Source: an uncultured Candidatus Rokubacteria bacterium (GTDB taxonomy: Bacteria > Methylomirabilota > Methylomirabilia > Rokubacteriales > DASRDR01). From it: a stretch of 64,000 bases of DNA. Below are positions 2,530 to 61,947 of this stretch, piece by piece. Within the stretch, counting starts at the first letter, position 1; each line of letters starts with the position of its first letter. The stretch covers positions 1-64,000 of the forward strand of contig CAWDVE010000009.1 in NCBI GenBank assembly GCA_963805625.1. The letters run 5' to 3'. The notes beneath the pieces were generated by a model. It did no database searches. It was given only the letters and a program-made list of their open reading frames with translations, and had not been told where the DNA came from. The position numbers and the translations under genes are program-made.

Positions 2530-2937
2530 TCAGGTCCGGGCAGGACGGACGTTCGCGGTCACGAAGGCGACGATGTCGCGCGTCGACGTGCCGGGCGTGA
2601 AGATCTCGCGCACGCCCTCGGCCTTCAGTCGCGCGATGTCCTCGGGCGGCACGATGCCTCCGCCGAAGACTAGCACGTCGTCGACACCCTTCTCGCGGAG
2701 GAGCTCCAGGACCCGGCCGAAAAGGTAGTTGTGGGCGCCGGACAGGACCGAGAGCCCGATGGCGTCGACGTCCTCCTGGATCGCGGTCGCGACGATCTCC
2801 TCGGGACTCTGGTGGAGCCCGGTGTAGACAACCTCCATGCCCGCGTCCCTGAGCGCCCGCGCCACGATCTTCGCGCCCCGGTCGTGGCCGTCCAGCCCAG
2901 GCTTCCCCACCAGGATCCGCAGCTTGCGCTCGGTCAT
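2530..2937 (-). CDS. icmB: Cobalamin-binding small subunit of an acyl-CoA mutase (IcmB/MCM C-terminal domain)
   Basis: [12 protein letters not shown] (DxHxxG), [16 protein letters not shown]; start [10 protein letters not shown] at 2937. Confidence 0.9.
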
Positions 2938-2997
2938 GGGACCCGGCCGGCCGCGTCGGTGGAGAGGGCGATCGTCTGGCATCTCATCCGCACGTCC

Positions 2998-3408
2998 TCA
3001 CACGAGCGCCCCCCGGATCCTCTCGGCCGCCGCCTGGATGCGCCCCCGGTCCCCGGCGACGACGGGCCAGTCGAAGCCCTTCCCGTCCCCGGTGAAGCGC
3101 GGAATCAAATGGAAGTGAAAGTGCGGCACCGACTGGAACGCGGCAGCCCCATTCGCCTGCAGCAGATTGAGACCGTCGGCGCGCAGGGCCTCCCGGATGG
3201 CCTTCCCCACGCGCTTGGCCGTCGCGATCGCCGCCCGGAGATCCGCCTCGTCGGCCTCGAAGAGGGTCGCCGCGTGGGCGCGCGGGATGACCAGGGTGTG
3301 GCCCTCGTTCAGAGGGTTGATATCCATGAAGGCGATCGTGCGCTCGTCCTCGTACACCCGCGTCGAGGGGATCTGGCCGTCCCGGATCCGGCAGAACACG
3401 CAGTCCAC
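2998..3408 (-). CDS. HIT family hydrolase
   Basis: MDCVFCRI, PLNEGHTLVIP, histidine triad QSVPHFHFHLIPR. Confidence 0.95.
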   Translation of the reverse strand: MDCVFCRIRDGQIPSTRVYEDERTIAFMDINPLNEGHTLVIPRAHAATLFEADEADLRAAIATAKRVGKAIREALRADGLNLLQANGAAAFQSVPHFHFHLIPRFTGDGKGFDWPVVAGDRGRIQAAAERIRGALV

Positions 3409-3417
3409 GCCGCGGCC

Positions 3418-4005: not shown

Positions 4006-4042
4006 CGCTCCGCCTTCCTCCGGCAACGCTCCGCGCCGGCTC

Positions 4043-5668
4043 TCAGAAGATGATGGGCTCCCGGTAGCGCCCGAACGTCTCGCGATACACGTCTGCGATC
4101 TCCCCGAGGGAGGCCTGCGCCTTGACCGCGTCCACGAGGACCGGCATCAGGTTCTGCCCGTTCCGGCACGCGTCCGCGACGCGGCGCAGCTGGTGAGCGA
4201 CGTGTGCCGGGCTCCGGGCCGCCTTGACCGCGCGGAGACGCTCGACCTGCTCGCGCTCGACCGCCTCGTCGAGCCGGAGGTACGGGATCGGTGGCTCGTC
4301 CGCCTGAACGTGGCGGTTCACGCCGACCACCACGCGCTCCCCGGCGTCCTCCTTGAGCTGCGTCCGGTAGCCGGAGTCCGCGATCTCCTGCTGCGGGAAC
4401 CCCACGTCGAGGGCCCGGATCATCCCGCCCAGGTCGTCGATCTTCCGGATGAGGCGCCAGGCCTCGGCCTCCATCCGGTCCGTGAGCGCCTCGACGAAGT
4501 AGGCCCCGCCGAGCGGATCAACGGTGTGGGTGACCCCCGTCTCCTCGGCGACGATCTGCTGGGTCCGGAGCGCCAGGGTCACGGCCTCCTCGGTCGGGAG
4601 CGCCCACGTCTCGTCGTAGGAGTTCGTGTGGAGCGACTGGGCTCCACCGAGCACCGCGGCCAGCGCCTGGATCGCGACGCGCGCGACGTTGTTGAGTGGC
4701 TGCTGCGCGGTCAGGGAGACGCCGGCCGTCTGGGTGTGCATCCGGAGCCGCATGGCCCGGGGATCGGTGGCGCCGAACCGCTCCTTCATGATCGTGGCCC
4801 AGATGCGGCGGGCCGCGCGGAGCTTCGCGATCTCCTCGAAGAAGTCCGAGTGGATGTCGAAGAAGAACGAAAGCTGCGGCGCGAAACGGTCCACCGGCAG
4901 CCCGCGCTGGACGCAGGCCTCGACGTACGCGACGCCGTCGGCCAGCGTGAAGGCCAGCTCCTGGATCGCCGTCGCGCCGGCTTCCCGGATGTGGTAGCCG
5001 GAGATCGACACCGGGTGAAACTTCGGGACCGAGTGCATGCAGAACTCGATCATGTCGACGACGATCCGGACGGCCGGCGTCGGGGGGCAGATCCATTCCT
5101 TCTGGGCGCTGAACTCCTTCAGCATGTCGTTCTGGATGGTGCCGTCCACCTCGGTCCAGGGCACGCCCTGCCGCTCCGCCACCGCCAGGTACATCGCGAG
5201 GACGACGGATGCGGTGCAGTTGATGGTCATTGACGTCGAGACCCGGCCGAGCGGGATGCCCTCGAAGAGCCGCTCCATGTCGGCGAGCGTCGAGACCGAC
5301 ACACCCTCGCGGCCGACCTCGCCTCGGGCTTTCGGGTGGTCGGCGTCGTACCCCATGAGGGACGGCATGTCGAAGGCGGTCGAGAGGCCGGTCTGGCCTT
5401 GCTCGAGGAGGAACTTGAAGCGCCGGTTCGTGTCCTCGGGCCGCCCGAAGCCGGCGAACATCCGCATGGTCCAGAGGCGTCCCCGGTACATGGTGGGATA
5501 GACGCCCCGGGTGAACGGGTACTCGCCGGGAAGCCCCAGCCGCTCCGGGTCGCGCCAGCCCGGCAGGTCCGCCGGCGTGTACACACGCTCGACGGGCAGG
5601 CCGGACATGGTCTCGAAGGCCGGTTTCCGCTCGGTCGACCCGCGGTCCTGGCTGCGCTCCTCGGTCAC
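4043..5668 (-). CDS. icmA: Acyl-CoA mutase large subunit, isobutyryl-CoA mutase type
   Basis: [19 protein letters not shown] (Phe where MCM has Tyr89), [14 protein letters not shown] (Gln where MCM has Arg207), [20 protein letters not shown]. Confidence 0.85.
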
Positions 5669-5699
5669 CGGGCCGGCCTCCCGTCGTCCTTGGTTGCGA

Positions 5700-6845
5700 T
5701 CACGTGGCCTCCAGCAGCGACCGCGCGACGACCAGCCGCTGGATCTGGGACGTTCCCTCGTAGATCTGGGTGACCTTCGCGTCCCGGAAGAAGCGCTCGA
5801 CCGGATACTCCTTCATGTACCCGTACCCGCCGTGCACCTGGACCGCATCCGTCGCCACGCGCATGGCGGTCTCGGAGGCGAAGAGCTTGGCCATCGACGC
5901 CGCCGGGCCGTACGACTTGCCCCGGTCCTTCAGCACGGCCGCGCGCCAGGCCAGTAGCCGGGCCGCGTCGACGCCCGTGGCCATGTCGGCGAGCATCCAC
6001 TGGACCTGCTGGTGCTGCCCGATCGGGACGCCGAAGCTCCGCCGCCCCTTCGCGTACGCCACGGAGGCCTCGAGCGCGGCCCGGGCGATGCCGATCGCCT
6101 GCGCGGCGATGCCGATGCGCCCCCCGTCGAGGGCGCGCATCGCGACCTTGAACCCCTCGCCCTCGCCCCCCAGGCGGTTCGCCACGGGCACCCGGCATCC
6201 CTCGAACACGAACTCCGCCGTGTCGGACGCGCGGAGCCCGAGCTTGTCCTCCACCCGGGGAACGTGGAATCCCGGCGTCCCCTTCTCGATCAGGAGCGCG
6301 GTGATGCCGTGACGAGCCTTCTGGACATCGGTCTGGACGAAGACCAGAGCCACGGTCGACTCCCGGCCGTTCGTCACGAACACCTTGCGCCCGTCGATCA
6401 CGTAGTGGTCACCGTCGCGCCGGCCCAGCGTCGCCTGGTTCGTGGCGTCCGATCCCGCCTGAGGCTCGGTCAGGGCGAAGCAGCCAAGCGCACGGCCGGA
6501 GGCCAGGGGTCCGAGGAAGCGCTCGTGCTGGGCCGGCGTCCCGAACTTCAGCAGGGGCTCGCAGACGAGGGAGTTGTTCACCGACATCACCACGGCGTGG
6601 GACGCGCAGGCGACCGCGACCTCCTCGAGGGCCAGCACGTAGGACAGCGTGTCGGCGCCGCCGCCGCCCAGCTTGTCCGGGACCATGATCCCGAGGAGCC
6701 CGAGCTCGCCCATCCGCTTCACCGTGGCGTGCGGGAAGCGCCCCTCCCGGTCGCACGCGGCGGCGATGGGCTTGACCTCCTGCTCGGCGAACTCCCGAGC
6801 GAGGCCCTGGACCATCTGCTGCTCGTCCGTCAGCTCGAGCCTCAT
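5700..6845 (-). CDS. Acyl-CoA dehydrogenase (butyryl-CoA dehydrogenase-like)
   Basis: [33 protein letters not shown]. Confidence 0.95.
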
Positions 6846-18753: not shown

Positions 18754-19722
18754 TCAGGCGCCCCCCGGCCGGCGACGCGCCCAGGCGCGTCGGAGATGCG
18801 GGTAGGCGCCCTGGGGAAGGAACAGCACGATCCCGACCAGGAGCACGCCGTAGACGACGAGGTGGAGACCGCTCCAGCCGGGTCGGGTGAAGTAGATGCG
18901 GGCGATCTCGGCCAGCGGCGAGAGGATCAGAGACCCCAGGAGGGGTCCCAGCAACGTCCCCGCCCCCCCGACGACGGGCCGGATGATGATGTCCACCGAG
19001 AGGGGGATGCCGAACACGGCATTCGGCTGGAGCGAGAACAGATAGTTCGCGTAGAAGGCCCCCCCGAGTCCCGTCAGAAACGCCGAGAGAACGATAGCGT
19101 AGAGCTTGTAGCGGAAGGTGTCGACACCTAGCGCTTCGGCGGCATCCTCGTCCTCCCGGATCGCCACGAGATACGCACCCAGGCGGCTTCGCTCGACCAG
19201 CGCGACGACGCCCGTCGCCAGCAGCATCAGGGCCAGCGCGAGGTAGTAGTACGCGCGGTTGTCCTGGAACTGGAGCTGCCAGGGGTTGCCGGTGAACGTG
19301 ATGTACAGGCCGAGCGCGCCTCCCATGGCGTCGGTGTTGAGCGTGACGATCCGGCACACCTCGGCGAACGCCACCGTCAGCAGGACGAAGTAGAAGCCGC
19401 GCAGTCCGAACCGGAAGCCCAGGCCCCCGATGATTGCCCCCAGCCCCGCCGCCAGCACCCCGCCGGCCAGCATCCCGATCCAGGGCGACAACCCCCAGTG
19501 GAGCGAGAGCAGCGTCGTCGCGTACCCGCCCACTCCGACGAAGGCGGCGTGACCCGCCGAGAGCTGGCCGGCGTAGCCACCGAGCACGTTCCAGGCCTGC
19601 CCGAGGTAGCCGTAGAAGAAGATGAAGATGAACACGGTGACGGCGTAGGAGCTCAGCACAGCCGGCAAGGTCAGCAGCACCACGACGGCCAAGCCGCCGA
19701 GGCACAGTGCGCGCCGGCTCAC
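18754..19722 (-). CDS. livM: Branched-chain amino acid ABC transporter permease
   Basis: WNVLGGYAGQLSAGHAAF, AIREDEDAAEALG, VVGGAGTLLGP. Confidence 0.92.
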   Translation of the reverse strand: MSRRALCLGGLAVVVLLTLPAVLSSYAVTVFIFIFFYGYLGQAWNVLGGYAGQLSAGHAAFVGVGGYATTLLSLHWGLSPWIGMLAGGVLAAGLGAIIGGLGFRFGLRGFYFVLLTVAFAEVCRIVTLNTDAMGGALGLYITFTGNPWQLQFQDNRAYYYLALALMLLATGVVALVERSRLGAYLVAIREDEDAAEALGVDTFRYKLYAIVLSAFLTGLGGAFYANYLFSLQPNAVFGIPLSVDIIIRPVVGGAGTLLGPLLGSLILSPLAEIARIYFTRPGWSGLHLVVYGVLLVGIVLFLPQGAYPHLRRAWARRRPGGA

Positions 19723-19831
19723 GGTCCAGGCCTTCGCACGCCGGAGCGGCCTGACCGCCCCGGGTGTCGCCGGGGGCGCCCCGCCGCGGCGCGCGTGGTG
19801 GCCACCACCCGAGGCGACGGACGACGCGGCG

Positions 19832-20701
19832 TCATGCGCGGCGCCCGAAGAGGCCGGCGGGCCGAAACAGGAGGATGACGATCAGCATTCCGAAGCTCAC
19901 GAGCTCCTTCATCGACGGCGACAGGAACACCGCGCCGAGCGACTCCGCCACCGAGACGAGGAGGCCTCCCGCGAATGCGCCCGGCAGACTCCCCATGCCC
20001 CCGATGATGACGATGTTGAACGACGCCACGGACGCCGACAGGCCCACCGAGGGCGAGAACGGCAGGATCGGGGAGACCAGCGCTCCGGCGGCCCCGACGC
20101 ACGCCGCGCCGATCCCGAACGCCGTGGCGTAGACGCGCCGAACGTCCGTTCCGACCACGAGGGCGCCATAGGGGTTGTCGGCGGTCGCCCGCATCGTGCG
20201 CCCGAGATCCGTCCAGCGGAGAAAGAGCCACAGGGCACACGTGAGCGCGAGCGCGACGGTGAACGCGGCGAGGCGAGCCAGATCGACGAACACCGGGCCG
20301 ATCCAGAGCGTGGCGCCGGTCAGCGACGAGCGTACGCGCTGGGGATCCGGGCCGAACGCCACAAGCGCGGTGTTCTCGAGCACCAGGCCCACGCCGAGGA
20401 GCAGGAGGATCTGCATCTCGTGGGGCGAGTCCCGGATCCGGTCCACGAGGCTCCGCTGGACGAGAACCCCCAGGGCGAAGAGCGCCGCTGCGGACACGGC
20501 AAAGCCCAGCGTGGGATCGATCCCCAGGCGCGTCGCCAGAATCCATGCGAGGTACATGCCCCAGACCATCATGTCCCCGTGTGCGAAGTTGACGACGCGC
20601 ATCACCCCGAAGATCAAGGTGAGCCCGACCGCCATCAGACTGTAGACGCCGCCGAACAGGACGCCGCTGACGAGGCTCTGGGCGATCAGCGTCGGGTTCA
20701 T
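19832..20701 (-). CDS. livH: Branched-chain amino acid ABC transporter permease (possible extended TTG start at 20767)
   Basis: GLTLIFGVMRVVNFAHG, GRTMRATA, IIGGMGSLPGA, RPAGLFG. Confidence 0.92.
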   Translation of the reverse strand: MNPTLIAQSLVSGVLFGGVYSLMAVGLTLIFGVMRVVNFAHGDMMVWGMYLAWILATRLGIDPTLGFAVSAAALFALGVLVQRSLVDRIRDSPHEMQILLLLGVGLVLENTALVAFGPDPQRVRSSLTGATLWIGPVFVDLARLAAFTVALALTCALWLFLRWTDLGRTMRATADNPYGALVVGTDVRRVYATAFGIGAACVGAAGALVSPILPFSPSVGLSASVASFNIVIIGGMGSLPGAFAGGLLVSVAESLGAVFLSPSMKELVSFGMLIVILLFRPAGLFGRRA

Positions 20702-23282: not shown

Positions 23283-23338
23283 GGTCTACTCCCACTCCTC
23301 CGCGCGGGGGTGGCGATCTGCCCCTCGCCACCCGGCGG

Positions 23339-24004
23339 TCATCGAAGCCGGAAGCTTCGCAGGATCGTGTCGAACGTCATCGCCTCCCCGTCGAACTCGG
23401 CCGCGAGCGCCTGACCCACGACCACGAAGGCGCGGCGGTCTTGGAAGGTGCACAGCGCGATCGCGCGCACGAGCGCCCCGTCCACGTAGCCCTTGAAGTC
23501 GAGCCGTGCCGCCGGCCGGCCCTCGATCCGGACAGGACGGGTGGGCGTCACGGTCTCCGGATCGTTCATCCCGCTCCGCAGGCGCTCGCACGCCTCGATC
23601 ACATCCCCGGGAGGCTTTGGCAGGTCCTGAACCATCAGCACGACCTGTGGCGCCACCTCCCGGCCGAGGACGGGCACCTTCGACACGATCACCGCGAACC
23701 CCGCCGCTTTCACGGGGTCGGTGTCGCCGCTCGCTGCCGGCATCCCGGCGGCCTTCCGGGCGACATCGATGACCGTCGAGGCGGTGATGAAGTGCCAGCG
23801 CGGGGGCTTCTCGATCTGGACGCCGTAGCGGGGGTTCTGGTAGCGGTCGCCGTCGACCCGGTCCTGCGCCGCCGCGGGCACGGCGACGGTGCCGGCGAGG
23901 AGGAGGGTGAGCGCCCCGAGAAGCCGCGCGTGGCGTCGCGGTGCGGGCGCGCGACGTCGACGCCGAGAGGTCGCGGCGAGCGGCACCGGAACCTGGCGCG
24001 CCAT
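23339..24004 (-). CDS. Exported hypothetical protein (possible PsbP/DcrB-like fold)
   Basis: Signal peptide; YQNPRYGVQIEKPPRW start and FDTILRSFR end resemble PsbP-like periplasmic proteins. Confidence 0.6.
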   Translation of the reverse strand: MARQVPVPLAATSRRRRRAPAPRRHARLLGALTLLLAGTVAVPAAAQDRVDGDRYQNPRYGVQIEKPPRWHFITASTVIDVARKAAGMPAASGDTDPVKAAGFAVIVSKVPVLGREVAPQVVLMVQDLPKPPGDVIEACERLRSGMNDPETVTPTRPVRIEGRPAARLDFKGYVDGALVRAIALCTFQDRRAFVVVGQALAAEFDGEAMTFDTILRSFRLR

Positions 24005-25526: not shown

Positions 25527-25550
25527 CCTACCTTCTCCCGCGCCGCCCCA

Positions 25551-26075
25551 TCACTCGTAGATGATCAGGGACGTCACCGGGTAGTCCTTCAGCTTCGCGC
25601 GGCCGTCAAGGAAGGCCAGCTCGATCAGGAAGGCCAGCCCTACCACGACCCCACCGCACTGTTCGACGAGCCGGAGGGTCGCCGCCATCGTCCCCCCCGT
25701 GGCCAGCAGGTCGTCCACGACCAGGACACGCTGGCCGGGAGCGATCGCATCCTCGTGCATGGCCAAGGCGTCCCGCCCGTACTCGAGCTCGTACTCCACC
25801 TCGATGGTCTTGGCCGGGAGCTTTCCGAGCTTCCGGACAGGGACGAACCCCGCCCCCAGCTGATGCGCCAGGGCGCCCCCGAAGATGAACCCGCGAGACT
25901 CGACCCCTACGACGATCTCGACGCCCGACTGGATGTAGTGGGTGGCAAGCTCGTCGAGGACGCACTTGAAGGCCTTCGGGTCCTTCAGGAGGGTCGTGAT
26001 GTCCTTGAAGAGGATGCCCTCCGTCGGAAAGTCCTTGATGTCCCGGATCTTGGCCCTCAGCTCGGACGCCTCCAT
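25551..26075 (-). CDS. apt: Adenine phosphoribosyltransferase
   Basis: DFPTEGILFKDITTL, ESRGFIFG, VRKLGKLP, YELEYG, VVDDLLATGGT. Confidence 0.97.
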   Translation of the reverse strand: MEASELRAKIRDIKDFPTEGILFKDITTLLKDPKAFKCVLDELATHYIQSGVEIVVGVESRGFIFGGALAHQLGAGFVPVRKLGKLPAKTIEVEYELEYGRDALAMHEDAIAPGQRVLVVDDLLATGGTMAATLRLVEQCGGVVVGLAFLIELAFLDGRAKLKDYPVTSLIIYE

Positions 26076-26263: not shown

Positions 26264-26998
26264 TCACTCGAAACGGCTGACGAGGCACGGCAGATCCGCG
26301 AACCGCCGCAGGACGCCGTCGGCCGCCGCCGGCGGCGCCGATGGATCGGGGACGTAGTGGATGGCCCGCATTCCGACGCCCCGTGCGCCGGCCACGTCGG
26401 TCACCGCATCGTCGCCGACGTGCACGGCTCCGGCAGGGTCCATCCCCGCCTGGTCGAGCACCCGATGGAAGATCGCGGGCGCCGGCTTGCGGACACCCGC
26501 CTCGTCGGAGAAGGCGAGGACGTCGAAGCACGGCAGGAGTCCCGCGTCCCCGAGAAGGCGCCGCAGCACCCGGCCCGGCGTCCGGCCCGTATTCGAGATC
26601 ACACCCAGCCGGAGACCGCGCGCCCGGATCTCGTGCACGGCCTCCACGGCCGCGGGGGTGATCTCCGGGCGGTGCGTCAGCGCCGGCTCCTGGTAGACGC
26701 GGGCGATTCGGCCGAGCGTCCCCGGATCGAGCGTCGCGGGAAGCACCGGGTCGAGCGCGGCGAGAAACATCCGGAGCTGCTCGTCGGGGGCCATGTCACG
26801 GTGCTCCCGCCACACGACCGTGAACGCCTCCCCGGCCCGGGTGTCGGCCGCCGCCAGCTCGGGGGCGGCGTACAGATGCCCGGCCTCGGCCAGGGCCTCC
26901 CGGACCCCCTCGAGGCGGAGGACATGGGCGCGGCGGAGGCTGTCCCGCGTGTCGGCGAACAGCGTCTGCCAGAAGTCGAGCGTGACGAGCCCGATCAT
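26264..26998 (-). CDS. HAD-superfamily hydrolase
   Basis: TLDFWQTL, ISNTG, KPAPAIF, HVGDDAVTDVAGA. Confidence 0.88.
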   Translation of the reverse strand: MIGLVTLDFWQTLFADTRDSLRRAHVLRLEGVREALAEAGHLYAAPELAAADTRAGEAFTVVWREHRDMAPDEQLRMFLAALDPVLPATLDPGTLGRIARVYQEPALTHRPEITPAAVEAVHEIRARGLRLGVISNTGRTPGRVLRRLLGDAGLLPCFDVLAFSDEAGVRKPAPAIFHRVLDQAGMDPAGAVHVGDDAVTDVAGARGVGMRAIHYVPDPSAPPAAADGVLRRFADLPCLVSRFE

Positions 26999-27041
26999 CG
27001 GAACCCGGCGCGCGGGCAGCCGCCGCCGACCCCGCCCTTCC

Positions 27042-27167
27042 TCACCAGGGTCCCTCGACTGCCGGGAGAATGACCGCCTCGAGGAGGATGCCATCGTCCC
27101 GGACCAGCCCGTCGTCGGAGAATCTCTCGGGGTCCCACTCCAGCTCGTCGGTGAGCCCGTTCGCCAT
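27042..27167 (-). CDS. Putative 41-aa acidic peptide
   Basis: MANGLTDELEWDPERFSDDGLVRDDGILLEAVILPAVEGPW*; below the track cutoff; GC3-rich codons; linked to the HAD gene by a bridging mini-ORF. Confidence 0.5.
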   Translation of the reverse strand: MANGLTDELEWDPERFSDDGLVRDDGILLEAVILPAVEGPW

Positions 27168-27674: not shown

Positions 27675-28439
27675 TCAAGGATGCCCGATGTAGTCCATGC
27701 GGCCACCGTCTACGGTGAGAACCTGGGCGGTGACGAACCCGGACTCGGGCGACACGAGGTACGCGACCGCGTGGGCGATGTCCTCGGGCTTGCCGACGCG
27801 CCGCACCATCGACTTCGCCGCGAATGCTGCGAAGTCGGCCTCCGTCCGGCCGGCAGCGGCCATGTCCGTCAGAACGAAGCCCGGCGCGATCGCGTTCACC
27901 GTGACGCCGTGCGGCCCCAGCTCGAGCGCGAAGCGGCGCGTGAGCACGATCACCGCCGCCTTGGTGGCGGCGTAGAAGGTGGTGCCGGCGATCGCCGTGC
28001 CCAGCGCGGCCACCGACGCCACGTTCACGATGCGCCCGAACTTCCGCTCCTTCATGCCGGCCACCACGGCGCGCGTCACCGTCACCACGCCGTCGACGTT
28101 GATCCGCCGCATCCCCTCCAGCTGCGCGAGGTCGAAGTCTCCGAGGTCCCCGGGGCGGGAGACGCCCGCGTTGTTGATCAGGATGTCCACGGCCCCGAGC
28201 TCCGACGTGACGCGCGCGACCATGTCGCCCACCTGCGTCGCGTCCGCGACATCCGCCCGCACGGCCAGCGCTCGGCCGCCGCGCGCCCGGATCTCCCGCA
28301 CCACCGCGTCGGCCGCCTCCGCCTGCTCGCGGTAGTTCACGCCCACCGCGGCGCCCTCCCGGGCCAGCCGAAGCGCGATCGCCCGACCGAGTCCTCGCGA
28401 CGCGCCGGTCACCAGCGCGGCCCGTCCCTCCAGCGTCAT
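27675..28439 (-). CDS. SDR oxidoreductase (FabG-like)
   Basis: TGASRGLG, NNAG, YAATK, NAIAPG. Confidence 0.93.
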   Translation of the reverse strand: MTLEGRAALVTGASRGLGRAIALRLAREGAAVGVNYREQAEAADAVVREIRARGGRALAVRADVADATQVGDMVARVTSELGAVDILINNAGVSRPGDLGDFDLAQLEGMRRINVDGVVTVTRAVVAGMKERKFGRIVNVASVAALGTAIAGTTFYAATKAAVIVLTRRFALELGPHGVTVNAIAPGFVLTDMAAAGRTEADFAAFAAKSMVRRVGKPEDIAHAVAYLVSPESGFVTAQVLTVDGGRMDYIGHP

Positions 28440-28458
28440 GCCGACCTCGGGCCGGCGG

Positions 28459-30230: not shown

Positions 30231-30315
30231 GTGTCCGTCAGGGCCAGAGCATTCGGCGCTTCGCCGGCATCTCCTCCCGGGCGTTGATCCGACACCGAGG
30301 CCGGTCCATGCGCCC

Positions 30316-42216: not shown

Positions 42217-43137
42217 TCAGCGACCGTAGACGGGCGTGAGCCAGTGGCGGTAGGCCGGCTTCTCGCCCCGGACCACCGCGAAGTAGCAGGCCTGGATCGC
42301 CCGTGTCATCGGGCCGGGCTGGACGCCGTCCCCGAGCGGCAGCCGGTCGATGGAGACCACGGGCGTGATCTCCCAGCCGCTCCCGCAGAGGAAGACTTCG
42401 TCCGCGAGATAGAGCTCGGTACGATCGACGTCACGCTCGAGCGCAGGCTGGCCGAGCTCGGTCCGGAACAGCTCGAGGAGGGTGGTCCGCGTCACCGACT
42501 CCAGGATGTCGGCGGTCACGGGCGGTGTGATCGGCACGCCGCCGCGCATGAGGAAGCAGCAAGCCCCCGGCGCCTCGGCGAGCTTCCCGCGAGTGTTCAG
42601 GAGGAGCGCCCCGTCGTAGCCATTCGCCTTCGCCTCCAGGGTGGCGAGACGTCCGTTCTGGTAGTTCGCGGAGCACTTGATGCGCGGCGGCATCGAGCCG
42701 TCGGCGATGCGGGTCCACGACGACACGCCGACGGCGATGCCAGGCTTCTGCGTCGCCTTCCGCGGCCGTGCGTCCACCGCGAGTGCGACAGGACCGGTGT
42801 CGTCCATGTCGCCGTCGCCGGCGAGGTAGGCGGTCTGCCGGATGTGCACGTCCTCGCGCGGCTGATTCTTCCGGAGGACCTCCAGGATCGACCGCTCGAT
42901 CTCCTCGCGCGTCAGCGAGTGCTGCATCCGCATGAGGCGCATCGATCCCAGGAGGCGGTCGGTGTGCTCCTTCAGCCGGAAGACGTAGAGCTCCTCGTGG
43001 GCCGGGTTCCAGTAGGCCCGGAGCCCCTCGAAGACCGACCCCCCGTACTTCACCGCGGTCGACTGGACGTGGATCCGGGCGTCCGCGTAGGGGACCAGCT
43101 TGCCGTCGAGGTAGACATGCCGATTCGTCGTCGTCAC
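42217..43137 (-). CDS. ilvE: Branched-chain amino acid aminotransferase (class IV)
   Basis: YGGSVFEGLRAY, FRLKEH, IKCSANY, ILESVTR, DEVFLCG. Confidence 0.88.
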   Translation of the reverse strand: MTTTNRHVYLDGKLVPYADARIHVQSTAVKYGGSVFEGLRAYWNPAHEELYVFRLKEHTDRLLGSMRLMRMQHSLTREEIERSILEVLRKNQPREDVHIRQTAYLAGDGDMDDTGPVALAVDARPRKATQKPGIAVGVSSWTRIADGSMPPRIKCSANYQNGRLATLEAKANGYDGALLLNTRGKLAEAPGACCFLMRGGVPITPPVTADILESVTRTTLLELFRTELGQPALERDVDRTELYLADEVFLCGSGWEITPVVSIDRLPLGDGVQPGPMTRAIQACYFAVVRGEKPAYRHWLTPVYGR

Positions 43138-43174
43138 CAGAGTCCTCCCTTCTTCGCCCGCCCAGGGGTGGGCC

Positions 43175-44146
43175 TCACCGCCGGATGCGCGGATCTGGCT
43201 GGGCGAGCAGCTCCTCGAGCTCGCCGCGCCGGATGACCGCGATGTCACCCCACATCGTGCACTTCAACGCGGCGAGCGCCGTGCCGAGGTCCTGCGCTCG
43301 CTGCACGTCACGGGTCGTCAGCCACCCGTGCAGGAATCCCGCCGCGAACGCGTCGCCGGCGCCGACCCGGTCGGCCACGACATCCAGGCTGTAGAGGCGC
43401 GTCGGGCGGTGTGCCCGGTCCGTCAGGACCAGCGAGCCCTGATCGCCGAGCGTCAAGGCGATGATCGCGAGAGGCGCCAGCCCACGCAGCCCCGCCGCGA
43501 CGGCCTCGGGCTCCCCCGCGAGCCCGAAGACACGCCGCGCGTCCTCGATCCCGACGAACAGGAGCCCGACGCGCGAGAGCAGAGGCTGGAGATACGCCCG
43601 CGCCGCCTCGTAGCTCCAGAGAGCCGTGCGGTGGTTGACGTCGAGCGACAGGAGGGCCCCGCTCGCCTGGGCCGACTCGACCGCGCGCTCGAAGACGCGT
43701 CGGGGTCGGGGACCGAGCGCGGCCGTGATGCCCGTGACATGGACGACCCGGGTACGTGAGACCGCCGCCCAGTCCACCTCTGTCTCGTCCAGGGACGCGA
43801 ACGCGGAATCCTTCCGGTCGTAGACCACCCGGATCGGGCGCGGCGCCACGCCGTACTCGATGAAGTACGTGCCGATCCGCCCGCCCTCGCGCCAGGCGAT
43901 GTGCCCGACGTCAACGCCGTGGCCCCGGAGTTCCCGGGCCAGGCGCTCGCCCCAGACGTTCGCGGGCAGCGCCGAGATCCACGCCGTCGGGTGCCCGAGG
44001 CGCGCGAGGGCGCACAGGACGTTGGCCTCGGTCCCGCCGTAGGAGACGTCGAGCTCCGTCGCCTGCTCGAGCCGCGTGGGCGGCCGCGAGGCCAGGCGCA
44101 GCATGACCTCGCCGGGGGCGACCACGTCGAAGAGCGGCCCGGACAC
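43175..44146 (-). CDS. PfkB-family sugar kinase (2-keto-3-deoxygluconate kinase-like)
   Basis: GEVMLRL, GGTEANV, YDRKDSA, DVNHR, DRVGAGDAFAAG. Confidence 0.9.
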   Translation of the reverse strand: MSGPLFDVVAPGEVMLRLASRPPTRLEQATELDVSYGGTEANVLCALARLGHPTAWISALPANVWGERLARELRGHGVDVGHIAWREGGRIGTYFIEYGVAPRPIRVVYDRKDSAFASLDETEVDWAAVSRTRVVHVTGITAALGPRPRRVFERAVESAQASGALLSLDVNHRTALWSYEAARAYLQPLLSRVGLLFVGIEDARRVFGLAGEPEAVAAGLRGLAPLAIIALTLGDQGSLVLTDRAHRPTRLYSLDVVADRVGAGDAFAAGFLHGWLTTRDVQRAQDLGTALAALKCTMWGDIAVIRRGELEELLAQPDPRIRR

Positions 44147-52343: not shown

Positions 52344-53690
52344 TCAAGCGCCCGGCGCCTCGCGCCGGACGACGCGGCGGGCCTTCAGCTCGTAGCGCGG
52401 CAGGCTCCGGGCCGGCACGGTCGCCACCTCGATGCGGATCCCGAGGTCACGCCGGAGCGCCGCGGTGATCCCGTCGACGGTCTCCCGAACGCTCTCCGCA
52501 GGTCGGCCGTTGCCGTCGATTTCGAGCAGAAGACGGACCTCGTCCAGGGCGCCTCGGCGAAACACCTCGATCTGGAACTCGTCCACCAGCGCGAAGCGGC
52601 GCACGATCCCCTCGAGGGCCGAGGGGAACACGTTGATGCCTCGCACGACCAGCATGTCGTCGACCCGACCGAGGATGCCTCCCTCGAGGCGGGCGAACGT
52701 GCGGCCGCACGGGCACGCCCCGGTGCCGAGCCGCACCCGGTCGCCCGATCGGTAACGAAGAACGGGCGCTCCCCACCGGCCGAGGTTCGTCAGCGTCAGC
52801 TCCCCGATCTCCCCGGGCGCCACCGGTCGGCCACTGTCCGGGTCCAGCACCTCGGCGACGAATTCGAGCTCGTTCACATGGAGGCCCGACTGCGCGACGC
52901 ATTCGAACCCGTAGGCGCCCACCTCGGTCATGCCCGCGTGATCGTACGCTCGGGCTCCCCAGAGCAACTCCAGGCGACGGCGCACGGCCGGGATGCCCGC
53001 CCCTGGCTCGCCCGCGTGGACCGTGGTGCGGACGCCGAGCGCGGCGGGGTCGGCACCCTGGGCGCGTGCAACCTCCGCGAGGTGGAGCCCGTAGGACGGC
53101 GTGCAGACGAGGGCCGTGGCGCCCAGATCCCGGATCGCGTGAAGCCGCGTCAGGGAGTCCTGACCGCCCCCGGGGATGGTCATTGCGCCGAGGACCCGGG
53201 CGCCCTCGAGCCCGGCCCAGAAGCCGACGAAGAGGCCGAACGAGAACGGGAAGAAGAGGCGGTCCTGCGGCCCCAGCCCCGCTCCCCGGAACACGAAGGC
53301 CCAGCAGCGCGCCCACCACGTCCACGACGCTTCCGTCTCGAGCCACCGGATCGGCGGGCCCGTGGTGCCCGAGGTCTGGAACACGCGCACGTAGCGGTCG
53401 AGCGGGTGCGTGTGGTTGGTGCCGAACGGTGGGTGTGCCGCCTGGTCGGCCGCCAGCTCCACCTTCGTGAGGCGCGGAAGCCTGGCGAAGTCCGCCCAGG
53501 AGCCGACGTCGCGCGGGTCCTGCACGCCGGCCGCCTGGAGACGTCCCCGCCAGAAGGCGTTCGAGCCCCAGACCTCGCCCACTCCCGCGGCGAGACGCTC
53601 CCATTGCCACCGCCGAAGGCTGTCGGGGGGCGCCGTCTCCCGCGCGCGGTCCAGGAACGGGACGTCGGCCGCCGCATCCGGGCGGCTCAT
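52344..53690 (-). CDS. Phenylacetate-CoA ligase family (aryl-CoA ligase)
   Basis: QTSGTTG P-loop, CTPSY, HAGMTEVG, LRYRSGD, GRVDDML. Confidence 0.88.
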   Translation of the reverse strand: MSRPDAAADVPFLDRARETAPPDSLRRWQWERLAAGVGEVWGSNAFWRGRLQAAGVQDPRDVGSWADFARLPRLTKVELAADQAAHPPFGTNHTHPLDRYVRVFQTSGTTGPPIRWLETEASWTWWARCWAFVFRGAGLGPQDRLFFPFSFGLFVGFWAGLEGARVLGAMTIPGGGQDSLTRLHAIRDLGATALVCTPSYGLHLAEVARAQGADPAALGVRTTVHAGEPGAGIPAVRRRLELLWGARAYDHAGMTEVGAYGFECVAQSGLHVNELEFVAEVLDPDSGRPVAPGEIGELTLTNLGRWGAPVLRYRSGDRVRLGTGACPCGRTFARLEGGILGRVDDMLVVRGINVFPSALEGIVRRFALVDEFQIEVFRRGALDEVRLLLEIDGNGRPAESVRETVDGITAALRRDLGIRIEVATVPARSLPRYELKARRVVRREAPGA

Positions 53691-53718
53691 GACCCGGCGA
53701 CTCCTCGCGCGGCGCGCC

Positions 53719-54612
53719 TCACGGGAGGGAGAGCTGGCCCGTCATCACGATGACCCCCTGCCCGCCGACGCGTACGCGGGTCGCGCGACCGGGGGCGCCG
53801 TGGACCTCGACAGCGATCCGCCCCGGCCGACCCTGGAAATCCCCTTGCTCTCCCCGGAACCGCGCCACGCCGTCGGCGGCGACGAGACCGCCGGTCTCCC
53901 AGAGCCACACGCCGATGGCCGCGTGCGAAGACCCGGTCGCGAAGTCCTCCGGGATCCCGAAGTGCGGGATGAAGTTGCGGCTGTGGGTGAGGGCGCCCGG
54001 TTCCCGGGTCGCTCGCGCCGTGAGGACGATCCCGCGGACCCCGCGGTCCTTCGCGAGCCGCCCGAGCCGGTCAAGGTCGGGCGCCAGCGCCCGGAGCGCG
54101 TCGAGGGTCGCCACCGGGATCAGGAGATCCTGCTCCGACGTTCGCGCGGGCGGTGCCCACGCGGCAACAGCTTCGGCGGGCAGTCCCAGGACCGCGAGAA
54201 ACGGCGAGAGATCTCCACTCTCCGGCGCCCAGCGCGGACAGTCCGGCTCGAACCACGCGGTGGCGGAGGTCTCCGACCCCTCGAGCGTGATCGCGAGCCG
54301 GTGGCGCGGGGCTTCGAAGACGAGCTGGCCGCGGGGGGCCTCGCCGCGTGCCGCAAGGACGTGGGCCGCCGCCACCGTGCCATGGCCGCAGAGCGTCAGC
54401 TCCATCCCGGCCGGCGAGTACCAGCGCAGCGCGCGATCGCCGCCTTTCGCGCCCGGGCGGAGGAACGCGGTCGCCGGCCGCGCCAGCTCCATCGCGACGG
54501 CCCGCATCGTGGCCTCGTCGAGACCCGTCGCATCAGGCACGACAGCGGCTGGGTTGCCCGTGAAGGGCGTCGACGTGAACGCGTCGACGAAGACGACCTC
54601 GATAGCGCTCAC
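53719..54612 (-). CDS. PhzF-family isomerase
   Basis: VDAFTSTPFTGNPAAV, ELTLCGHGTVAA, EDFATGS. Confidence 0.9.
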   Translation of the reverse strand: MSAIEVVFVDAFTSTPFTGNPAAVVPDATGLDEATMRAVAMELARPATAFLRPGAKGGDRALRWYSPAGMELTLCGHGTVAAAHVLAARGEAPRGQLVFEAPRHRLAITLEGSETSATAWFEPDCPRWAPESGDLSPFLAVLGLPAEAVAAWAPPARTSEQDLLIPVATLDALRALAPDLDRLGRLAKDRGVRGIVLTARATREPGALTHSRNFIPHFGIPEDFATGSSHAAIGVWLWETGGLVAADGVARFRGEQGDFQGRPGRIAVEVHGAPGRATRVRVGGQGVIVMTGQLSLP

Positions 54613-54700
54613 CGGACTATCCTCGCGGCGCATGGGAGTAGGTCCACCGGCTTCGATCCCACGACGTTCGGTCTCTGGCGGCCTGTGGCGCCCTGTGGGC

Positions 54701-55255
54701 TCACGCATCCTTGCCCGTGATGACCCAGAGCGTTCGCGCGGTGCCCGACCCGACGTTCTCCCACGTATGCGGAACACCCCCGTCGAGGTAGGCCGAATCG
54801 CCCGCCTCGAGAAGGTGGCGCTCGCCGTTGTACTGGAGGGCGACCTTCCCGTCCAGGACGTACATGAGCTTCATCTGCCCCGGCTCGATCAGGATGCGCT
54901 CGGGCGGCACGCTCGCGCCCCGCCGGCCGAGCGTCGAGACCACGGCGCGCACCTTGCCCCGGAAGAGGCCGGCGGCCAGGACCTCCCAGCGCTCGGTGGA
55001 ACCGTCGAAGCTGACGACCGCATAGTCCTTCCGGCGTCCCACGTGCAGCTGCCCGTTCGGGGCCTGCTCGAAGAAGGCGCCGATCGGAACGCCGAGGGCG
55101 CCCGCCAGCCGCCCCAGGGTGTGGAGAGACGGCGTCAGCTTGTCGGACTCGATCTGGGACACCAGGCTCGGTGTGAGCCCGGCCGTCTCCGCCAGGGTGT
55201 TCTGGCGGATGCCGCGATCCGTCCGCAGCGCCCGGATCCGCGCCCCGAGGGACAC
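54701..55255 (-). CDS. XRE-family HTH regulator with cupin domain
   Basis: LGARIRALR..LVSQIESDK..PSLHTL; cupin LEAGDSAY..PHTWEN. Confidence 0.9.
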   Translation of the reverse strand: MSLGARIRALRTDRGIRQNTLAETAGLTPSLVSQIESDKLTPSLHTLGRLAGALGVPIGAFFEQAPNGQLHVGRRKDYAVVSFDGSTERWEVLAAGLFRGKVRAVVSTLGRRGASVPPERILIEPGQMKLMYVLDGKVALQYNGERHLLEAGDSAYLDGGVPHTWENVGSGTARTLWVITGKDA

Positions 55256-58353: not shown

Positions 58354-58373
58354 GCCAGTCTCTTCACGGACCG

Positions 58374-59411
58374 CTATCCCTCCTCCACGGCTCGTGCCGA
58401 CATCCCGGAGGGCCAGAGGCCCTCGAGAGGCAGCCCGGCCAGCTCCCGGAGGGCACGGGTGACGTACACCCGCGTCATGCGCTTCCGATAGTGATAGACG
58501 AGATCGGTGTTGTCGAGCGGCTTCGCCGGCCGGGCCGCGGCTTCGGCCGCCCGCGTGATGGCCTCCGGGCCGAACGGCTGCCCGACGAGCATGCGCGCGG
58601 CCTCGGGCACCTCGCGCGGCGTCGAGGCCACGGCCCCGAGGACGATCCGGGCGTCCCGGCAAACGCCCCCCTCGACGCGCACCGCCGCCGCGACGCCAAG
58701 CACCGGGAAGTCGAACGCCCCCCGTCTGCGAAGCTTCCAGTAGGTGGCGCGCCAGCCGTCGACCGGGGGCAGGCGGAGCTCGGTCACGATCTCGTCGGGA
58801 GCCTTGCCGAGGTACTCGATGCCGTCGTCCCGGAAGAGTCCCGCGACCGGAATCCGGCGCGCGCCCCCGGGGCCGACCAGGGTGGCCTCGGCGCCGAGCG
58901 CCCACAGGACCGGCGCCGTGTCGGAGGAGGAGACGGCCCAGCAGCGGGTGCTGCCGGGCGCCACCAGGCAGATGTCGCCGTCCTTCTTCATGCAGAAACC
59001 GATCGACCGGCGCCACTCGTAGGACTGGTTGTAGTAGTTGCAGCGCGTGTCGACGCAGACGTTGCCGCCGAGCGTCCCCATGTTGCGGAGCTGCGGCGTC
59101 GAGACCACGCCGGCCGCTCGCGCGAGGGCCGGGTAGCGGGCGGCCACCTCAGGGTGCTCCGCGACGCGGGTGAGCGTCGTGCCAGCGCCCACCACCAGAC
59201 CGTCCCGCGCGCTTCCCTGGATTCGCGCCAGCTCCCGGATCCCGCGGAGGCCCACCAGGACCCGCGGCTCCATCTGAAGACGCTTCATGTTGGGATAGAG
59301 GTCGGTGCCCCCGGCGACCACCGCGGCCTCGCGGCCGTGCTCGACGAGGAGCCCGACCGCCTCGGCCACGCTCCGCGGCGCGAAGTACCGGAAGGGCGGA
59401 AGCCGCATCAT
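58374..59411 (-). CDS. hcrB: 4-hydroxybenzoyl-CoA reductase-like FAD/[4Fe-4S] subunit
   Basis: AGGTDL, QLRNMGTLGGN, plus the Cys-rich insert TRCNYYNQS..W..FCMKKDGDIC..TRC characteristic of HcrB/HbaD. Confidence 0.88.
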   Translation of the reverse strand: MMRLPPFRYFAPRSVAEAVGLLVEHGREAAVVAGGTDLYPNMKRLQMEPRVLVGLRGIRELARIQGSARDGLVVGAGTTLTRVAEHPEVAARYPALARAAGVVSTPQLRNMGTLGGNVCVDTRCNYYNQSYEWRRSIGFCMKKDGDICLVAPGSTRCWAVSSSDTAPVLWALGAEATLVGPGGARRIPVAGLFRDDGIEYLGKAPDEIVTELRLPPVDGWRATYWKLRRRGAFDFPVLGVAAAVRVEGGVCRDARIVLGAVASTPREVPEAARMLVGQPFGPEAITRAAEAAARPAKPLDNTDLVYHYRKRMTRVYVTRALRELAGLPLEGLWPSGMSARAVEEG

Positions 59412-59511
59412 GGGTACGCCCCCCAGTCGGATACGGTCCTCAGCCTCTGGCGACCCCGCCCATTGATCGAACGGCCTTCAGCCGAGGGGGGACGCCGCTC
59501 TCGACAGCCCT

Positions 59512-61947
59512 TCACGGGTGGGAACGCTCCTTTCCGTGGACCACGCCGGCCGCGCGCCCGTCGGGGTCGATCCAGGGCGGCGGAACGCGGGTCGGATCCG
59601 GGAACTCGACGTGCGGGAGGCGCTCCGGCCCCACGCGCGGCGCCTTGCCCTGAGCTTTCCGGTCGAGCGCCTTCAGGATCTTCTCGGGCGTGATCGGCAC
59701 CTCGTCGATCCGCACGCCGATCGCGTCGTAGACCGCGTTGGCGACCGCCGGGATCACCGGGAGGAGGGGGCCCTGGCCCGCCTCCTTGGCGCCGAACGGT
59801 CCCTCGGGGTCCCGGGTCTCCACCAGGAGGGTCGTGATCTCCGGCGTCTCGAGCGTCGTCGGGCTCTTGTACTCGAGGAGCGACGGGATCTTGTGGAGCC
59901 CGTGGACGCGGAAGGCCGACTCCTCCATGAGGGCTTCCCCGAGCCCCATGTAGATCGAGCCCTCGACCTGGCCCTCCACAAGGAGCGGGTTGATCGCGGT
60001 CCCCCCGTCGTGGGCGATCCACACGTGGTCGACCCGGATGTCGCCGGTCTCCGGGTCGACCTCGAGCTCCACGGCGCAGGCCGAGTAGGAGTACGCGGGC
60101 GTCGGGCCGACCCCCGACCCCTTGAACTTGGCCGCGCGCCGGGGCGGCGTGTACGAGCCGGCGGCGACGAGCGTCCCGAAGGCCGCCTCCGCCAGCCGCG
60201 CCGCCTCGTCGAAGGCAAGCCCGCGAACCGGATCGTCCCGCAGGAAGATGCGCCGGTCTCGGGCCTCGAGGTCCTCGGGCGAGGCCTCGAGCTTCTTCGC
60301 GGCCGCGGCGAGAAGCTGCTCCCGGAGCTTCTCGGCCGCCTCGCGGGCCGCGTTGCCCGTCATCAGAGTCACCCGCGAGGAGTACGAGCCGAGGTCCACG
60401 GGGGTGAGATCCGTGTCGGCGGTGACGACCCGCACGTCCTCCGGCCGGACGCCCAGCACCTCGGCGACGACGTACGCCAAGACGGAGTCGGATCCCTGTC
60501 CGATGTCGGTGGAGCCGCAGAATGCCGCAACGCCGCCGCCGCGGTCGATCTTCACCATCACGCCCGAGTGCGGCATGTCGTTCCAGTAGATCGGGAGGCC
60601 CGCCCCGGACAGGTAGGCGGAGGCCGCAAACCCGATGCCGCGGCCCGAGGGCAGCTTCCGGAACTTCTCCCGCCAGCCCGACGCCTCCACCACGCGGTCG
60701 ATGCACTCCGGGAGACCGCACGTCGTCACGGTGAGGTGGTTCACCGTCTTCCCGTGCTCGGGCACGACGGTGCGCCGCCGCATTCTCGCCGGGTCGAGGC
60801 CGAGCTCCTCGGCGATCTTGTCGAGGTGAACCTCGAGGGCGAATCGGGGCTGGGGCGTGCCGTGGCCGCGCTTCGGGCCGCAGGGGGGCTTGTTCGTGAA
60901 GACGCGGCAGCCCTCGAACTTGTATCGGGCGATCCGGTAGGTCACGGTCTGGAGCGCGCCCGTGTAGAACGTCGACGCGACCCCATAGGAGCCGTACGCC
61001 CCCCCGTCGAGCCAGGTCCGGAAGTGGAGCGCCAGGATCTCGCCGTCCTTCCGCACCCCCGACCGCACCCACATCAGCACGGGATGGCGGCCCCGGTGGG
61101 TGTAGAAGACCTCCTCGCGCGTGAGCGTCGTCTTGACCGGGCGGCCCGTGAGCTGGGCCAGCCGCGCCACCGCCATCTCGTGGCTGAAGGGGTCGGACTT
61201 CCCGCCGAACCCGCCGCCGTTCGGGGTCGCGACGACGCGGATGTGGCTCATCGGGACCCCGAGGACCTTCCCGAGAGCCCGGTGGACGTAGTGCGGCGTC
61301 TGGGTCGAGGACCAGAGCGTCAACTTCCCGTCCGGCGTCCACTGGGCGACGGCCGCGTGCTGCTCCATCGGCAGGTGCGTGTTCCCCTCGAAGAAGAACA
61401 CGTCCTCGCGGACGAGATCGGCCTCGCGAAACCCCTCCTCGACGTCACCGAACTCGAGCGAGACCAGCTTGTGGATGTTGGGCCCGTCTCCGTACTCGTG
61501 GATCCGGTGAGCGCCCTCGCGGAGCGCGGCCTCGATCGACATGAGCGCATCGAGGGGCTCGTACTCGACGTCGATCATCCGCGCGGCGGCCTCCGCCGTC
61601 TCCTCGTCCACGGCGGCGACGGCCGCCACGGGGTCTCCCACGAAGCGCACCTTCTCGACGCAGAGCGGCTCCTCGTCCTGGCTCACGGGCATGATCCCGA
61701 AGCGGACCGGGGGAAAATCGCGCCCGGTGATGACCGCGTAGACGCCGGGCAGCGCGGCCGCGCGCGTCGTGTCGATCCGCCGGATGAGGGCGTGCGGGTG
61801 CTGGGCCCGGAGAAGCTTCGCGTACGCCATGCGCGGGAAGACGAGGTCGTCGGCGAAGCGCGTCTCGCCGGTCACCTTTGCCCAGGCGTCGACCTTGGGG
61901 AGCCGCTGACCGACGACGGAGAGGCGTCGCTCGCGCGGGCTACTCAC
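59512..61947 (-). CDS. hcrA: 4-hydroxybenzoyl-CoA reductase-like molybdopterin subunit
   Basis: STQTPHYVH, GGGFGGK, PCGPKRGHG, DIGQGS, DLGSYSSRVT, GQVEG, GPFGAKEAGQG. Confidence 0.85.
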   Translation of the reverse strand: MSSPRERRLSVVGQRLPKVDAWAKVTGETRFADDLVFPRMAYAKLLRAQHPHALIRRIDTTRAAALPGVYAVITGRDFPPVRFGIMPVSQDEEPLCVEKVRFVGDPVAAVAAVDEETAEAAARMIDVEYEPLDALMSIEAALREGAHRIHEYGDGPNIHKLVSLEFGDVEEGFREADLVREDVFFFEGNTHLPMEQHAAVAQWTPDGKLTLWSSTQTPHYVHRALGKVLGVPMSHIRVVATPNGGGFGGKSDPFSHEMAVARLAQLTGRPVKTTLTREEVFYTHRGRHPVLMWVRSGVRKDGEILALHFRTWLDGGAYGSYGVASTFYTGALQTVTYRIARYKFEGCRVFTNKPPCGPKRGHGTPQPRFALEVHLDKIAEELGLDPARMRRRTVVPEHGKTVNHLTVTTCGLPECIDRVVEASGWREKFRKLPSGRGIGFAASAYLSGAGLPIYWNDMPHSGVMVKIDRGGGVAAFCGSTDIGQGSDSVLAYVVAEVLGVRPEDVRVVTADTDLTPVDLGSYSSRVTLMTGNAAREAAEKLREQLLAAAAKKLEASPEDLEARDRRIFLRDDPVRGLAFDEAARLAEAAFGTLVAAGSYTPPRRAAKFKGSGVGPTPAYSYSACAVELEVDPETGDIRVDHVWIAHDGGTAINPLLVEGQVEGSIYMGLGEALMEESAFRVHGLHKIPSLLEYKSPTTLETPEITTLLVETRDPEGPFGAKEAGQGPLLPVIPAVANAVYDAIGVRIDEVPITPEKILKALDRKAQGKAPRVGPERLPHVEFPDPTRVPPPWIDPDGRAAGVVHGKERSHP

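Follow-up and report, generated by a model that had tools for sequence, protein, structure and literature searches.

The 64,000-nucleotide (nt) window analyzed here is the start of contig CAWDVE010000009.1 (C9) of an uncultured Candidatus Rokubacteria bacterium (assembly GCA_963805625.1; 7.27 Mb, 28 contigs). It has a GC content of 70% and carries nearly all of its genes on the minus strand. Between some of these genes lie mini open reading frames (mini-ORFs), here called bridges, that open on the stop codon of the upstream gene and close on the start codon of the next, each time by a four-base overlap. Bridges occur genome-wide about twice as often as expected by chance, and the statistics of their ends and frames suggest that they are probably stop/start overlaps opened by a spacer, the length of which was selected for relay of ribosomes.

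We propose that the spacer in a former 4-base overlap came from a 56-base repeat located at start codons, from some other insert, or from an N-terminal extension shifted by one base. Coupling would be broken by an insert that opens the overlap unless this insert is translated from the old start to the new overlap, or unless it extends the downstream protein in frame, so that inserts in these two phases should survive better. The ribosome would terminate, restart on the overlapping ATG or GTG, read a throw-away peptide and restart on the next gene. Selection likely favored spacer lengths that permit this hand-over. We infer that the frame bias described below is due to selection and that termination-reinitiation takes place at both ends of a bridge.

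Excess and frame bias of bridges across the genome

Genes were predicted with a caller self-trained on the genome (using hexamer score, start codon type and Shine-Dalgarno (SD) class) that gives no bonus to overlaps. Both gene scores exceed 15 in 4,081 of the 4,840 co-directional pairs, and 506 of these 4,081 are plain -4 overlaps. Gapped pairs (gaps of 1-200 nt) number 2,615 genome-wide. An exact bridge was defined as an upstream gene ending in RTGA and a downstream gene starting with NTGA, separated by a stop-free gap of 1 mod 3.

Exact bridges make up 124 of the gapped pairs. Shuffling both gene ends and starts gives 58 (maximum of 85 in 1,000 shuffles), shuffling the ends alone 78 (maximum of 100 in 1,000) and the starts alone 63 (maximum of 83 in 1,000), and nulls stratified by length and frame class give 86 and 77 (maxima of 105 and 92 in 400). 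The comparison with shuffles that the first-pass annotation had suggested as a check on its mini-ORFs (124 vs. 58-86) thus came out in their favor. The excess amounts to 38-66 bridges, with the remaining 47-70% or so expected by chance; an unspecified subset of the single bridges, roughly half or more of the 124, is therefore chance. With repeat-like junctions removed, 109 bridges remain among 2,542 pairs vs. 52-78 under the nulls. The gap is no longer than 30 nt in 62 of the 124.

The distribution of gap length modulo 3, another check proposed at that stage, also bears out a bias. RTGA-ended genes followed by NTGA starts are skewed to 1 mod 3 (46, 147 and 66 pairs at 0, 1 and 2 mod 3), and genes that end in TAA or TAG have no frame bias (84, 97 and 82). 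CTGA, which contains no start codon, gives 91, 127 and 68. Within the bridge frame, the next start is NTGA in 147 of 271 pairs after RTGA ends vs. 127 of 386 after CTGA ends (P 6e-8). The bias after CTGA is independent of NTGA starts (127/386 vs. 91/266, P 0.74), whereas that after RTGA is linked to them, and NTGA starts show no excess in the uncoupling frame (46/131). Frameshift scars at the C-terminus of the upstream gene were rejected as the main source of bridges, because NTGA starts should then be in equal excess after CTGA ends, and they are not. Deletion of one or two mid-spacer bases reduces exact bridges from 103 to 48 and 24, respectively, and loose relays (those that end within 10 nt of the next start) from 165 to 83 and 75.

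The same pipeline was run on control sequences. Three 0.9 Mb pieces of this genome contain 13, 14 and 18 bridges vs. 5-10 expected (one piece has P 0.064 under one null), and three genomes of the same genus (1.6 Mb) have 36 bridges among 548 pairs vs. 13-19. The outgroup samples, which are small, are at null level: Nonomuraea gerenzanensis (72% GC; 0.9 of 11.85 Mb) has 4/273 vs. 2-3, and a Methylobacterium aquaticum replicon (71% GC; 0.6 of 1.57 Mb) has 4/167 vs. 3-3.5. The 11.85 Mb Nonomuraea record, NZ_LT559118.1, is filed as a plasmid but is probably the chromosome. As GC-matched outgroups lack the excess, it is neither a product of GC content or gene calling nor universal; the bridge excess is limited to a lineage. 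At most 19 split genes were found in 823 kb of aligned coding sequence, too few for assembly errors to supply the excess.

The window itself has bridges at 7 of 39 gapped pairs, as against a chance expectation of about 0.9-1.3 (P 3e-5 to 4e-4); a further case at 26995-27045 was excluded from this count because the ORF upstream of it scores below the cut-off of 15. Among the 103 bins of 64 kb in the genome, which average 1.15 bridges, it ranks first in density. Measured against the genome's own bridge rate, P is 0.003, or about 0.3 after allowing for the 103 bins. Thus, the window stands at the upper end of a trend that runs through the genome and is no special region.

Bridges of the window and their counterparts in relatives

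The eight mini-ORFs and two near-misses reported in the first-pass annotation were all recovered, each of them open and with a length that is a multiple of three. They are listed here with one further near-relay (aa, amino acids):

5665..5703, minus strand: 12-aa bridge from an acyl-CoA dehydrogenase to an acyl-CoA mutase N-terminal subunit; without the repeat
19719..19835, minus strand: 38-aa bridge between two branched-chain ABC permeases (livH to livM); one base short of an in-frame N-terminal extension
26995..27045, minus strand: 16-aa bridge from a 41-aa ORF of doubtful status to a HAD hydrolase; the weakest of the eight
28436..28462, minus strand: 8-aa bridge from a sugar ABC permease to an SDR
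43134..43178, minus strand: 14-aa bridge from a PfkB-type kinase to ilvE, which has its own SD site (SD class 5)
53687..53722, minus strand: 11-aa bridge from a PhzF-family gene to a PaaK-like ligase; the best conserved
54609..54704, minus strand: 31-aa bridge from an XRE regulator to PhzF; an expanded copy of the 56-nt repeat
59408..59515, minus strand: 35-aa bridge from an hcrA-like to an hcrB-like gene; holds the repeat core
23286..23342, minus strand: near-relay with its stop 3 nt ahead of the next start
25528..25554, minus strand: near-miss without support; frame and end differ across 10 relatives
30238..30309, minus strand: 23-aa near-relay, absent from the first-pass annotation

A -4 NTGA overlap is present at both ends in 8/8 mini-ORFs, and the downstream starts chosen by the caller agree with all eight of those linked to them earlier. 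NCBIfam profile matches open close to the downstream starts of ilvE, SDR, hcrB and PhzF. The curated NCBIfam cut-offs were passed by the mutase N-terminal domain, ilvE, PhzF and one SDR model; livH, livM, hcrA, hcrB, the HAD hydrolase and the ligase fall below them, and gene names are given at family level.

Syntenic DNA of relatives, which as kin are not independent, was compared junction by junction. Single junctions occur across relatives as a plain -4 overlap, as an in-frame N-terminal extension, or as a bridge of other length or sequence. At seven window junctions, 69 of 82 relative rows are compatible with coupling (direct overlap, extension, bridge, or an end within 4 nt). In 10 of 19 relatives, hcrA and hcrB meet in a plain -4 overlap, and the other nine have spacers of 31-166 nt, partly of unrelated sequence: eight are in the bridge frame (one of them CTGA-ended), one is in frame with hcrB and none is in the uncoupling frame. 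The livH-livM spacer is 109 nt here and 110 nt in relative G014, where it forms an in-frame N-terminal extension; 11 relatives show four direct overlaps, four extensions, two bridges and one uncoupled state. Between PhzF and the ligase, nine of 12 relatives have a bridge, one a direct overlap and two neither. Eight of these nine bridges have an identical spacer length of 28 nt, and their peptides differ.

The acyl-CoA dehydrogenase-mutase junction is a bridge in five of nine relatives (in one of them it contains the 56-nt repeat), a direct -4 overlap in one, an in-frame extension in one, and uncoupled in two. Six relatives have the permease-SDR junction as a bridge (four), a direct overlap (one) or open in frame (one). 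The XRE-PhzF junction is more often direct (six of 12), with two bridges, one extension, one stop 4 nt early and two rows scored as uncoupled. The near-relay at 23286..23342 likewise stops 3-4 nt early in seven of 12 relatives (one is direct and four are not coupled in these ways). The one at 30238..30309 opens 6 nt past the upstream TAG and stops 7 nt ahead of the next GTG; its spacer of 37-85 nt is 1 mod 3 in 8/8 relatives, and the TGA 7 nt before the next start is mostly conserved. The 41-aa ORF ahead of the HAD gene (27042-27167) has a score of 11.5, no family match and no orthologous junction. In relatives, the gap contains remnants that are shorter and variable; that of G009 is an ORF which itself apparently ends on the HAD start. 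At 2934-3001, a 60-nt gap is not a bridge here or in G014, but six of nine relatives have a 10-nt exact bridge and one has a plain overlap, so a bridge has been lost here.

A sample of 421 orthologous junctions was chosen regardless of bridges. It includes 22 bridges of this genome, which in relatives are a bridge (11), direct overlap (five), extension (one), near-relay (one) or uncoupled (four). Where a plain overlap in one genome faces an RTGA-ended added spacer in the other (17 rows, with eight rows that have a non-RTGA end and nine with another overlap excluded), 12 spacers are in the bridge frame, four are in frame and one is in the uncoupling frame (12 vs. 1, P 0.003). In the alignments, sequence is gained between two RTGA copies with both flanks intact; one-base toggles are also present. 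Under a stricter definition, the upstream RTGA is retained in 17/17 bridge orthologues vs. 20/34 other RTGA ends (P 0.002), the former set being slightly less diverged. The earlier expectation that frame rather than sequence is conserved holds at several junctions, where length or sequence changes and the frame is kept, but frame retention over the orthologues compared is not significant.

We detected no purifying selection on the peptides by coding score or codon-position mismatch. Coding scores are -0.81 in the mini-frames and -0.73 in other gaps, against +0.49 in gene bodies. In same-length orthologues at five window junctions (one a near-relay), mismatch by codon position is 0.31/0.28/0.35 in bridges and 0.05/0.05/0.25 in flanking genes, and synonymous to non-synonymous changes are 42:131 and 343:125, respectively. 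Neutral evolution of the peptides argues that bridges are neither small proteins nor scars of deleted genes.

Searches of the window for tRNA and tmRNA genes found none, and an Rfam scan of it gave no matches above the gathering score. The hcrCAB-like reductase genes (55259-62435, below NCBIfam cut-offs) share one conserved operon with two further downstream genes. A PcrA/UvrD-like helicase of 996 aa (39050-42040) has a C-terminal match, under the cut-off, to a Cas4-like nuclease.

A 56-nt repeat at start codons

The peptides had been described as sharing no sequence, which does not hold for all of them. The bridge at 54609..54704 aligns to a 56-nt repeat unit (z 5.2), as does, more weakly, that at 59408..59515 (z 3.5), which also gives a hit to the repeat core; five other window bridges tested do not align. 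Several long bridges have this core sequence in common. Clusters of the core number 50 by fuzzy match and 70 by profile, with none in a reversed control, although some of these 50-70 are other repeat types with the same core. Of the 70, 53 lie in sense between co-directional genes and six more precede a gene on the same strand. A recognizable repeat sequence is present in 15 of the 124 bridges.

The pattern at the 5' end of the repeat is present in this genome and in 5/6 genomes of the same genus, and in 0/144 other genomes of the phylum searched; the repeat thus appears to be restricted to the genus. Among the exact core matches listed, 70 of 80 are titled Rokubacteria or Methylomirabilota and none Mycobacterium.

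Unit anatomy was determined from 30 loci selected by the 5'-end pattern. Fourteen units are exactly 56 nt long (e.g., L314:1500-1555), and the length is 2 mod 3 in 17 of 22 measurable loci, which is the length that makes a bridge. A purine precedes TGA in 29 of the 30, as opposed to 44% of genes with a TGA stop. The reading frame of the unit has 19 codons, opening with M/V-SPQAEGRP and closing on the TGA of the next start. The second frame of the unit continues without a stop into the next gene, and a TAG 4 nt ahead of the start closes the third, which is where copies in that phase do end. Thus, a slipped copy would still deliver ribosomes. The repeat ORF forms a bridge at 16 loci and an in-frame extension at seven, ends within 10 nt at three and is uncoupled at two (two were unscored).

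The repeat starts on the stop of the upstream gene at only 12/30 loci, from which we infer that its anchor is the start codon. RTGAGC starts occur in 385 of 5,770 genes. Filled and empty sites could be aligned at 18 of 25 loci: L302, L303 and L319 differ from this genome by 56 nt and L315 by 57, the direction being unpolarized for each site, and the empty sites of L303, L315 and L319 hold a single RTGAGC. Tandem arrays were also found (three units 56 nt apart in G009 and two in G003). One low-confidence guess at how the repeat spreads is that it is non-autonomous, is copied into RTGAGC sites in trans and multiplies when its end repeats recombine. No linked transposase was found in a search limited to PF01797, which gave a single partial hit flanked by another repeat.

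Folding of the unit is no better than that of shuffles (z +1.0), and the core has only an 11-base hairpin. A structured RNA was rejected as an explanation for the spacers, since none of the four that were folded beats shuffles (z +0.4 to +1.1) and the Rfam scan of the window was negative. Repeat remnants form the N-termini of proteins, as in-frame fusions that open with SPQAEGRP (G000 C11, C13, C16 and C19; L300, L305 and L306). The 20-base core is also embedded in at least two other repeat types of one Rokubacteria genome (L031-L110), a C-run/G-run palindrome and a longer modular repeat, in dozens of copies.

REP/REPIN elements are short intergenic repeats associated with a Y1 (RAYT-type) transposase. 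The 56-nt repeat resembles them in being short and intergenic with a small hairpin core, and the core recurs in palindromic repeat types of this family. Unlike them, it is strongly sense-oriented and anchored to start codons, and the only Y1 match is flanked by a different repeat family. The latter, a REP-like second repeat, is present in the window as an inverted pair (6855-6946) and has 47 exact core copies in the genome, often as facing pairs; copies flank the genome's sole, partial Y1 transposase match (C4:136622-136789).

Origin of the bridges and comparison with known systems

Several results weigh against selection for relay. Gaps of 101-200 nt show no bridge excess (P 0.23), and the effect is limited to gaps of up to 100 nt. 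The absence of internal stops barely exceeds that in shuffles (62 vs. 60, 51 vs. 44 and 11 vs. 9). Among 26 RTGA junctions that are gapped in both genomes and changed in length, nine are in the uncoupling frame in the relative, so this set gives no sign of avoidance. Frame is retained in 11/17 vs. 102/228 cases (P 0.13), and the NTGA start no better than elsewhere (14/17 vs. 56/72). The kinase-ilvE junction is uncoupled in 5/13 relatives (six others have a bridge, one of them from TTG, and two an extension). In other genomes, the three frames hold 7, 9 and 8 of the repeat copies that lie close to an RTGA stop, according to a rough automated set in which 26 of 73 loci were unscored and some miscalled. 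In addition, 59% of the 124 bridge-downstream genes have an SD match of at least four bases (44-49% in other large classes), so that many can probably start alone, and such a match is present at only 20% of mini-ORF starts, vs. 44% of direct overlaps and a background of 10-17%. Based on these SD frequencies, relay need not be essential and may act as a mechanism of tolerance or as a supplement.

Bridges could instead be a by-product that the host does not currently select, arising from a repeat that happens to be 2 mod 3 long, from decayed copies of it, and from RTGA duplications and a deletion bias, with genes started from their own ribosome-binding sites. This we consider unlikely. It fits the common SD sites, the non-significant frame retention, the loss of bridges in some relatives and the limitation of both repeat and excess to the lineage, and more bridges than the 15 with a recognizable repeat may be decayed copies. 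However, the 109 bridges without the repeat beat all nulls, and half of all bridges have short gaps. Duplications of random length should fill the uncoupling frame equally, yet NTGA starts are not in excess there, and the unrelated spacers between hcrA and hcrB all avoid it. The complete retention of the upstream RTGA also argues against a by-product.

It is very improbable that mini-ORFs encode genuine small proteins or are what is left of deleted genes once coupled on both sides. This alternative would suit the 41-aa ORF before the HAD gene, with its remnant-like variants, and the peptide at 30238-30309, in which some residues are shared. Both small proteins and the in-frame scars suggested by the first-pass annotation were rejected, as the mini-frames score as non-coding, divergence is equal at the codon positions, and orthologous junctions show overlaps or extensions with no intervening gene (pairs with a whole gene between them in a relative were not searched for). 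Least probable of all is chance or artefact, whether from high GC, preference for TGA, miscalled starts or assembly frameshifts. The nulls do yield 58-86 of the 124, the starts in all counts come from the self-trained caller, and the window is the top of 103 bins; but the pipeline that finds no excess in outgroups finds it in size-matched pieces of this genome, genes that end in TAA or TAG lack the bias, and split genes are too few. For the genome-wide excess, this explanation is refuted.

Selection on spacer length for ribosome relay thus remains the probable origin of bridges. That spacers are selected to stay translatable is supported by the twofold excess, the kept frame and the lack of excess in outgroups, all of them sequence statistics. 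To speak of an unannotated operon grammar was to overstate a real excess, given the share due to chance, the losses in some relatives, the limited lineage and an idea already in print. A stronger version is conceivable, but we hold it only tentatively: a genome-wide relay grammar in this genus, in which overlap-opening spacers are kept only in a translatable phase, about 40-65 junctions per genome (more with near-relays) depend on throw-away peptides, and the 56-nt repeat is a frame-proof selfish element that exploits this, all three of its frames reaching the next start.

Published work reports that -4 overlaps are coupled and that a spacing of about 20 nt nearly abolishes coupling in Escherichia coli and Haloferax (PMC10666635). 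Termination-reinitiation at -4 NTGA overlaps (PMC10666635, PMC6728339) involves the same overlap as each bridge end, but bridges are two overlaps in series around a spacer that resembles non-coding sequence. Short ORFs can deliver ribosomes: mycobacterial interspersed repetitive units (MIRUs) insert at start codons and have an ORF coupled at -4 to the downstream gene (PMC12548453); their sites are known in filled and empty form, with tetranucleotide repeats, and they overlap the neighboring genes (PMC3184786). Relay ORFs with dispensable products are described in integron attC sites and as ORF-11 of attI1 (PMC8876359). These, too, ferry ribosomes over an element between genes by termination-reinitiation; here, however, bridges join metabolic and transport genes, and no cassette context is evident (integrase and attC were not searched for).

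The 56-nt repeat is most like MIRUs, from descriptions rather than sequence. Both are dispersed repeats of 40-100 bp in tens of copies (here 56 nt and 50-70 clusters), lie at start codons within operons, have filled and empty sites with flanking direct repeats and variable tandem arrays, and contain an ORF coupled at -4 to the downstream gene. Unlike MIRUs, the repeat is found in one genus, probably of Ca. Rokubacteria, and not in Mycobacterium, and 109 of the 124 bridges lack it. MIRUs are also described as having imperfect, GC-rich terminal and internal inverted repeats; the unit here has no significant folding, and the third-frame stop 4 nt before the start goes unmentioned in the available parts of the MIRU accounts (PMC12548453, PMC3184786). 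The repeat works like a MIRU but, coming from a different phylum, is not classed as one here.

The concept of relay is not new, having been published for MIRUs and for the ORFs of integron attC sites. The top-ranked results of a literature search (with few subscription journals and no supplements) held no description of the 56-nt repeat or genome-wide count of doubly overlapped bridges. The pattern itself is real and confined to a lineage; the MIRU-like repeat is newly described, and statistical evidence points to selection on spacer phase.

Genes separated by a gap within an operon are commonly taken to be uncoupled, since coupling, where measured, is lost once the spacing exceeds about 20 nt. 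If relay is confirmed, many such gaps would be coupled through unannotated throw-away ORFs, and a repeat could settle at start codons without silencing genes. The junctions also provide a natural allelic series (plain overlap, bridge, in-frame extension or no coupling, with a single base separating two forms in one case) with which the proposal made for MIRUs could be tested. Finally, bridges may serve to flag errors in start-site annotation, and the repeat as a tandem-repeat marker for this uncultured lineage.

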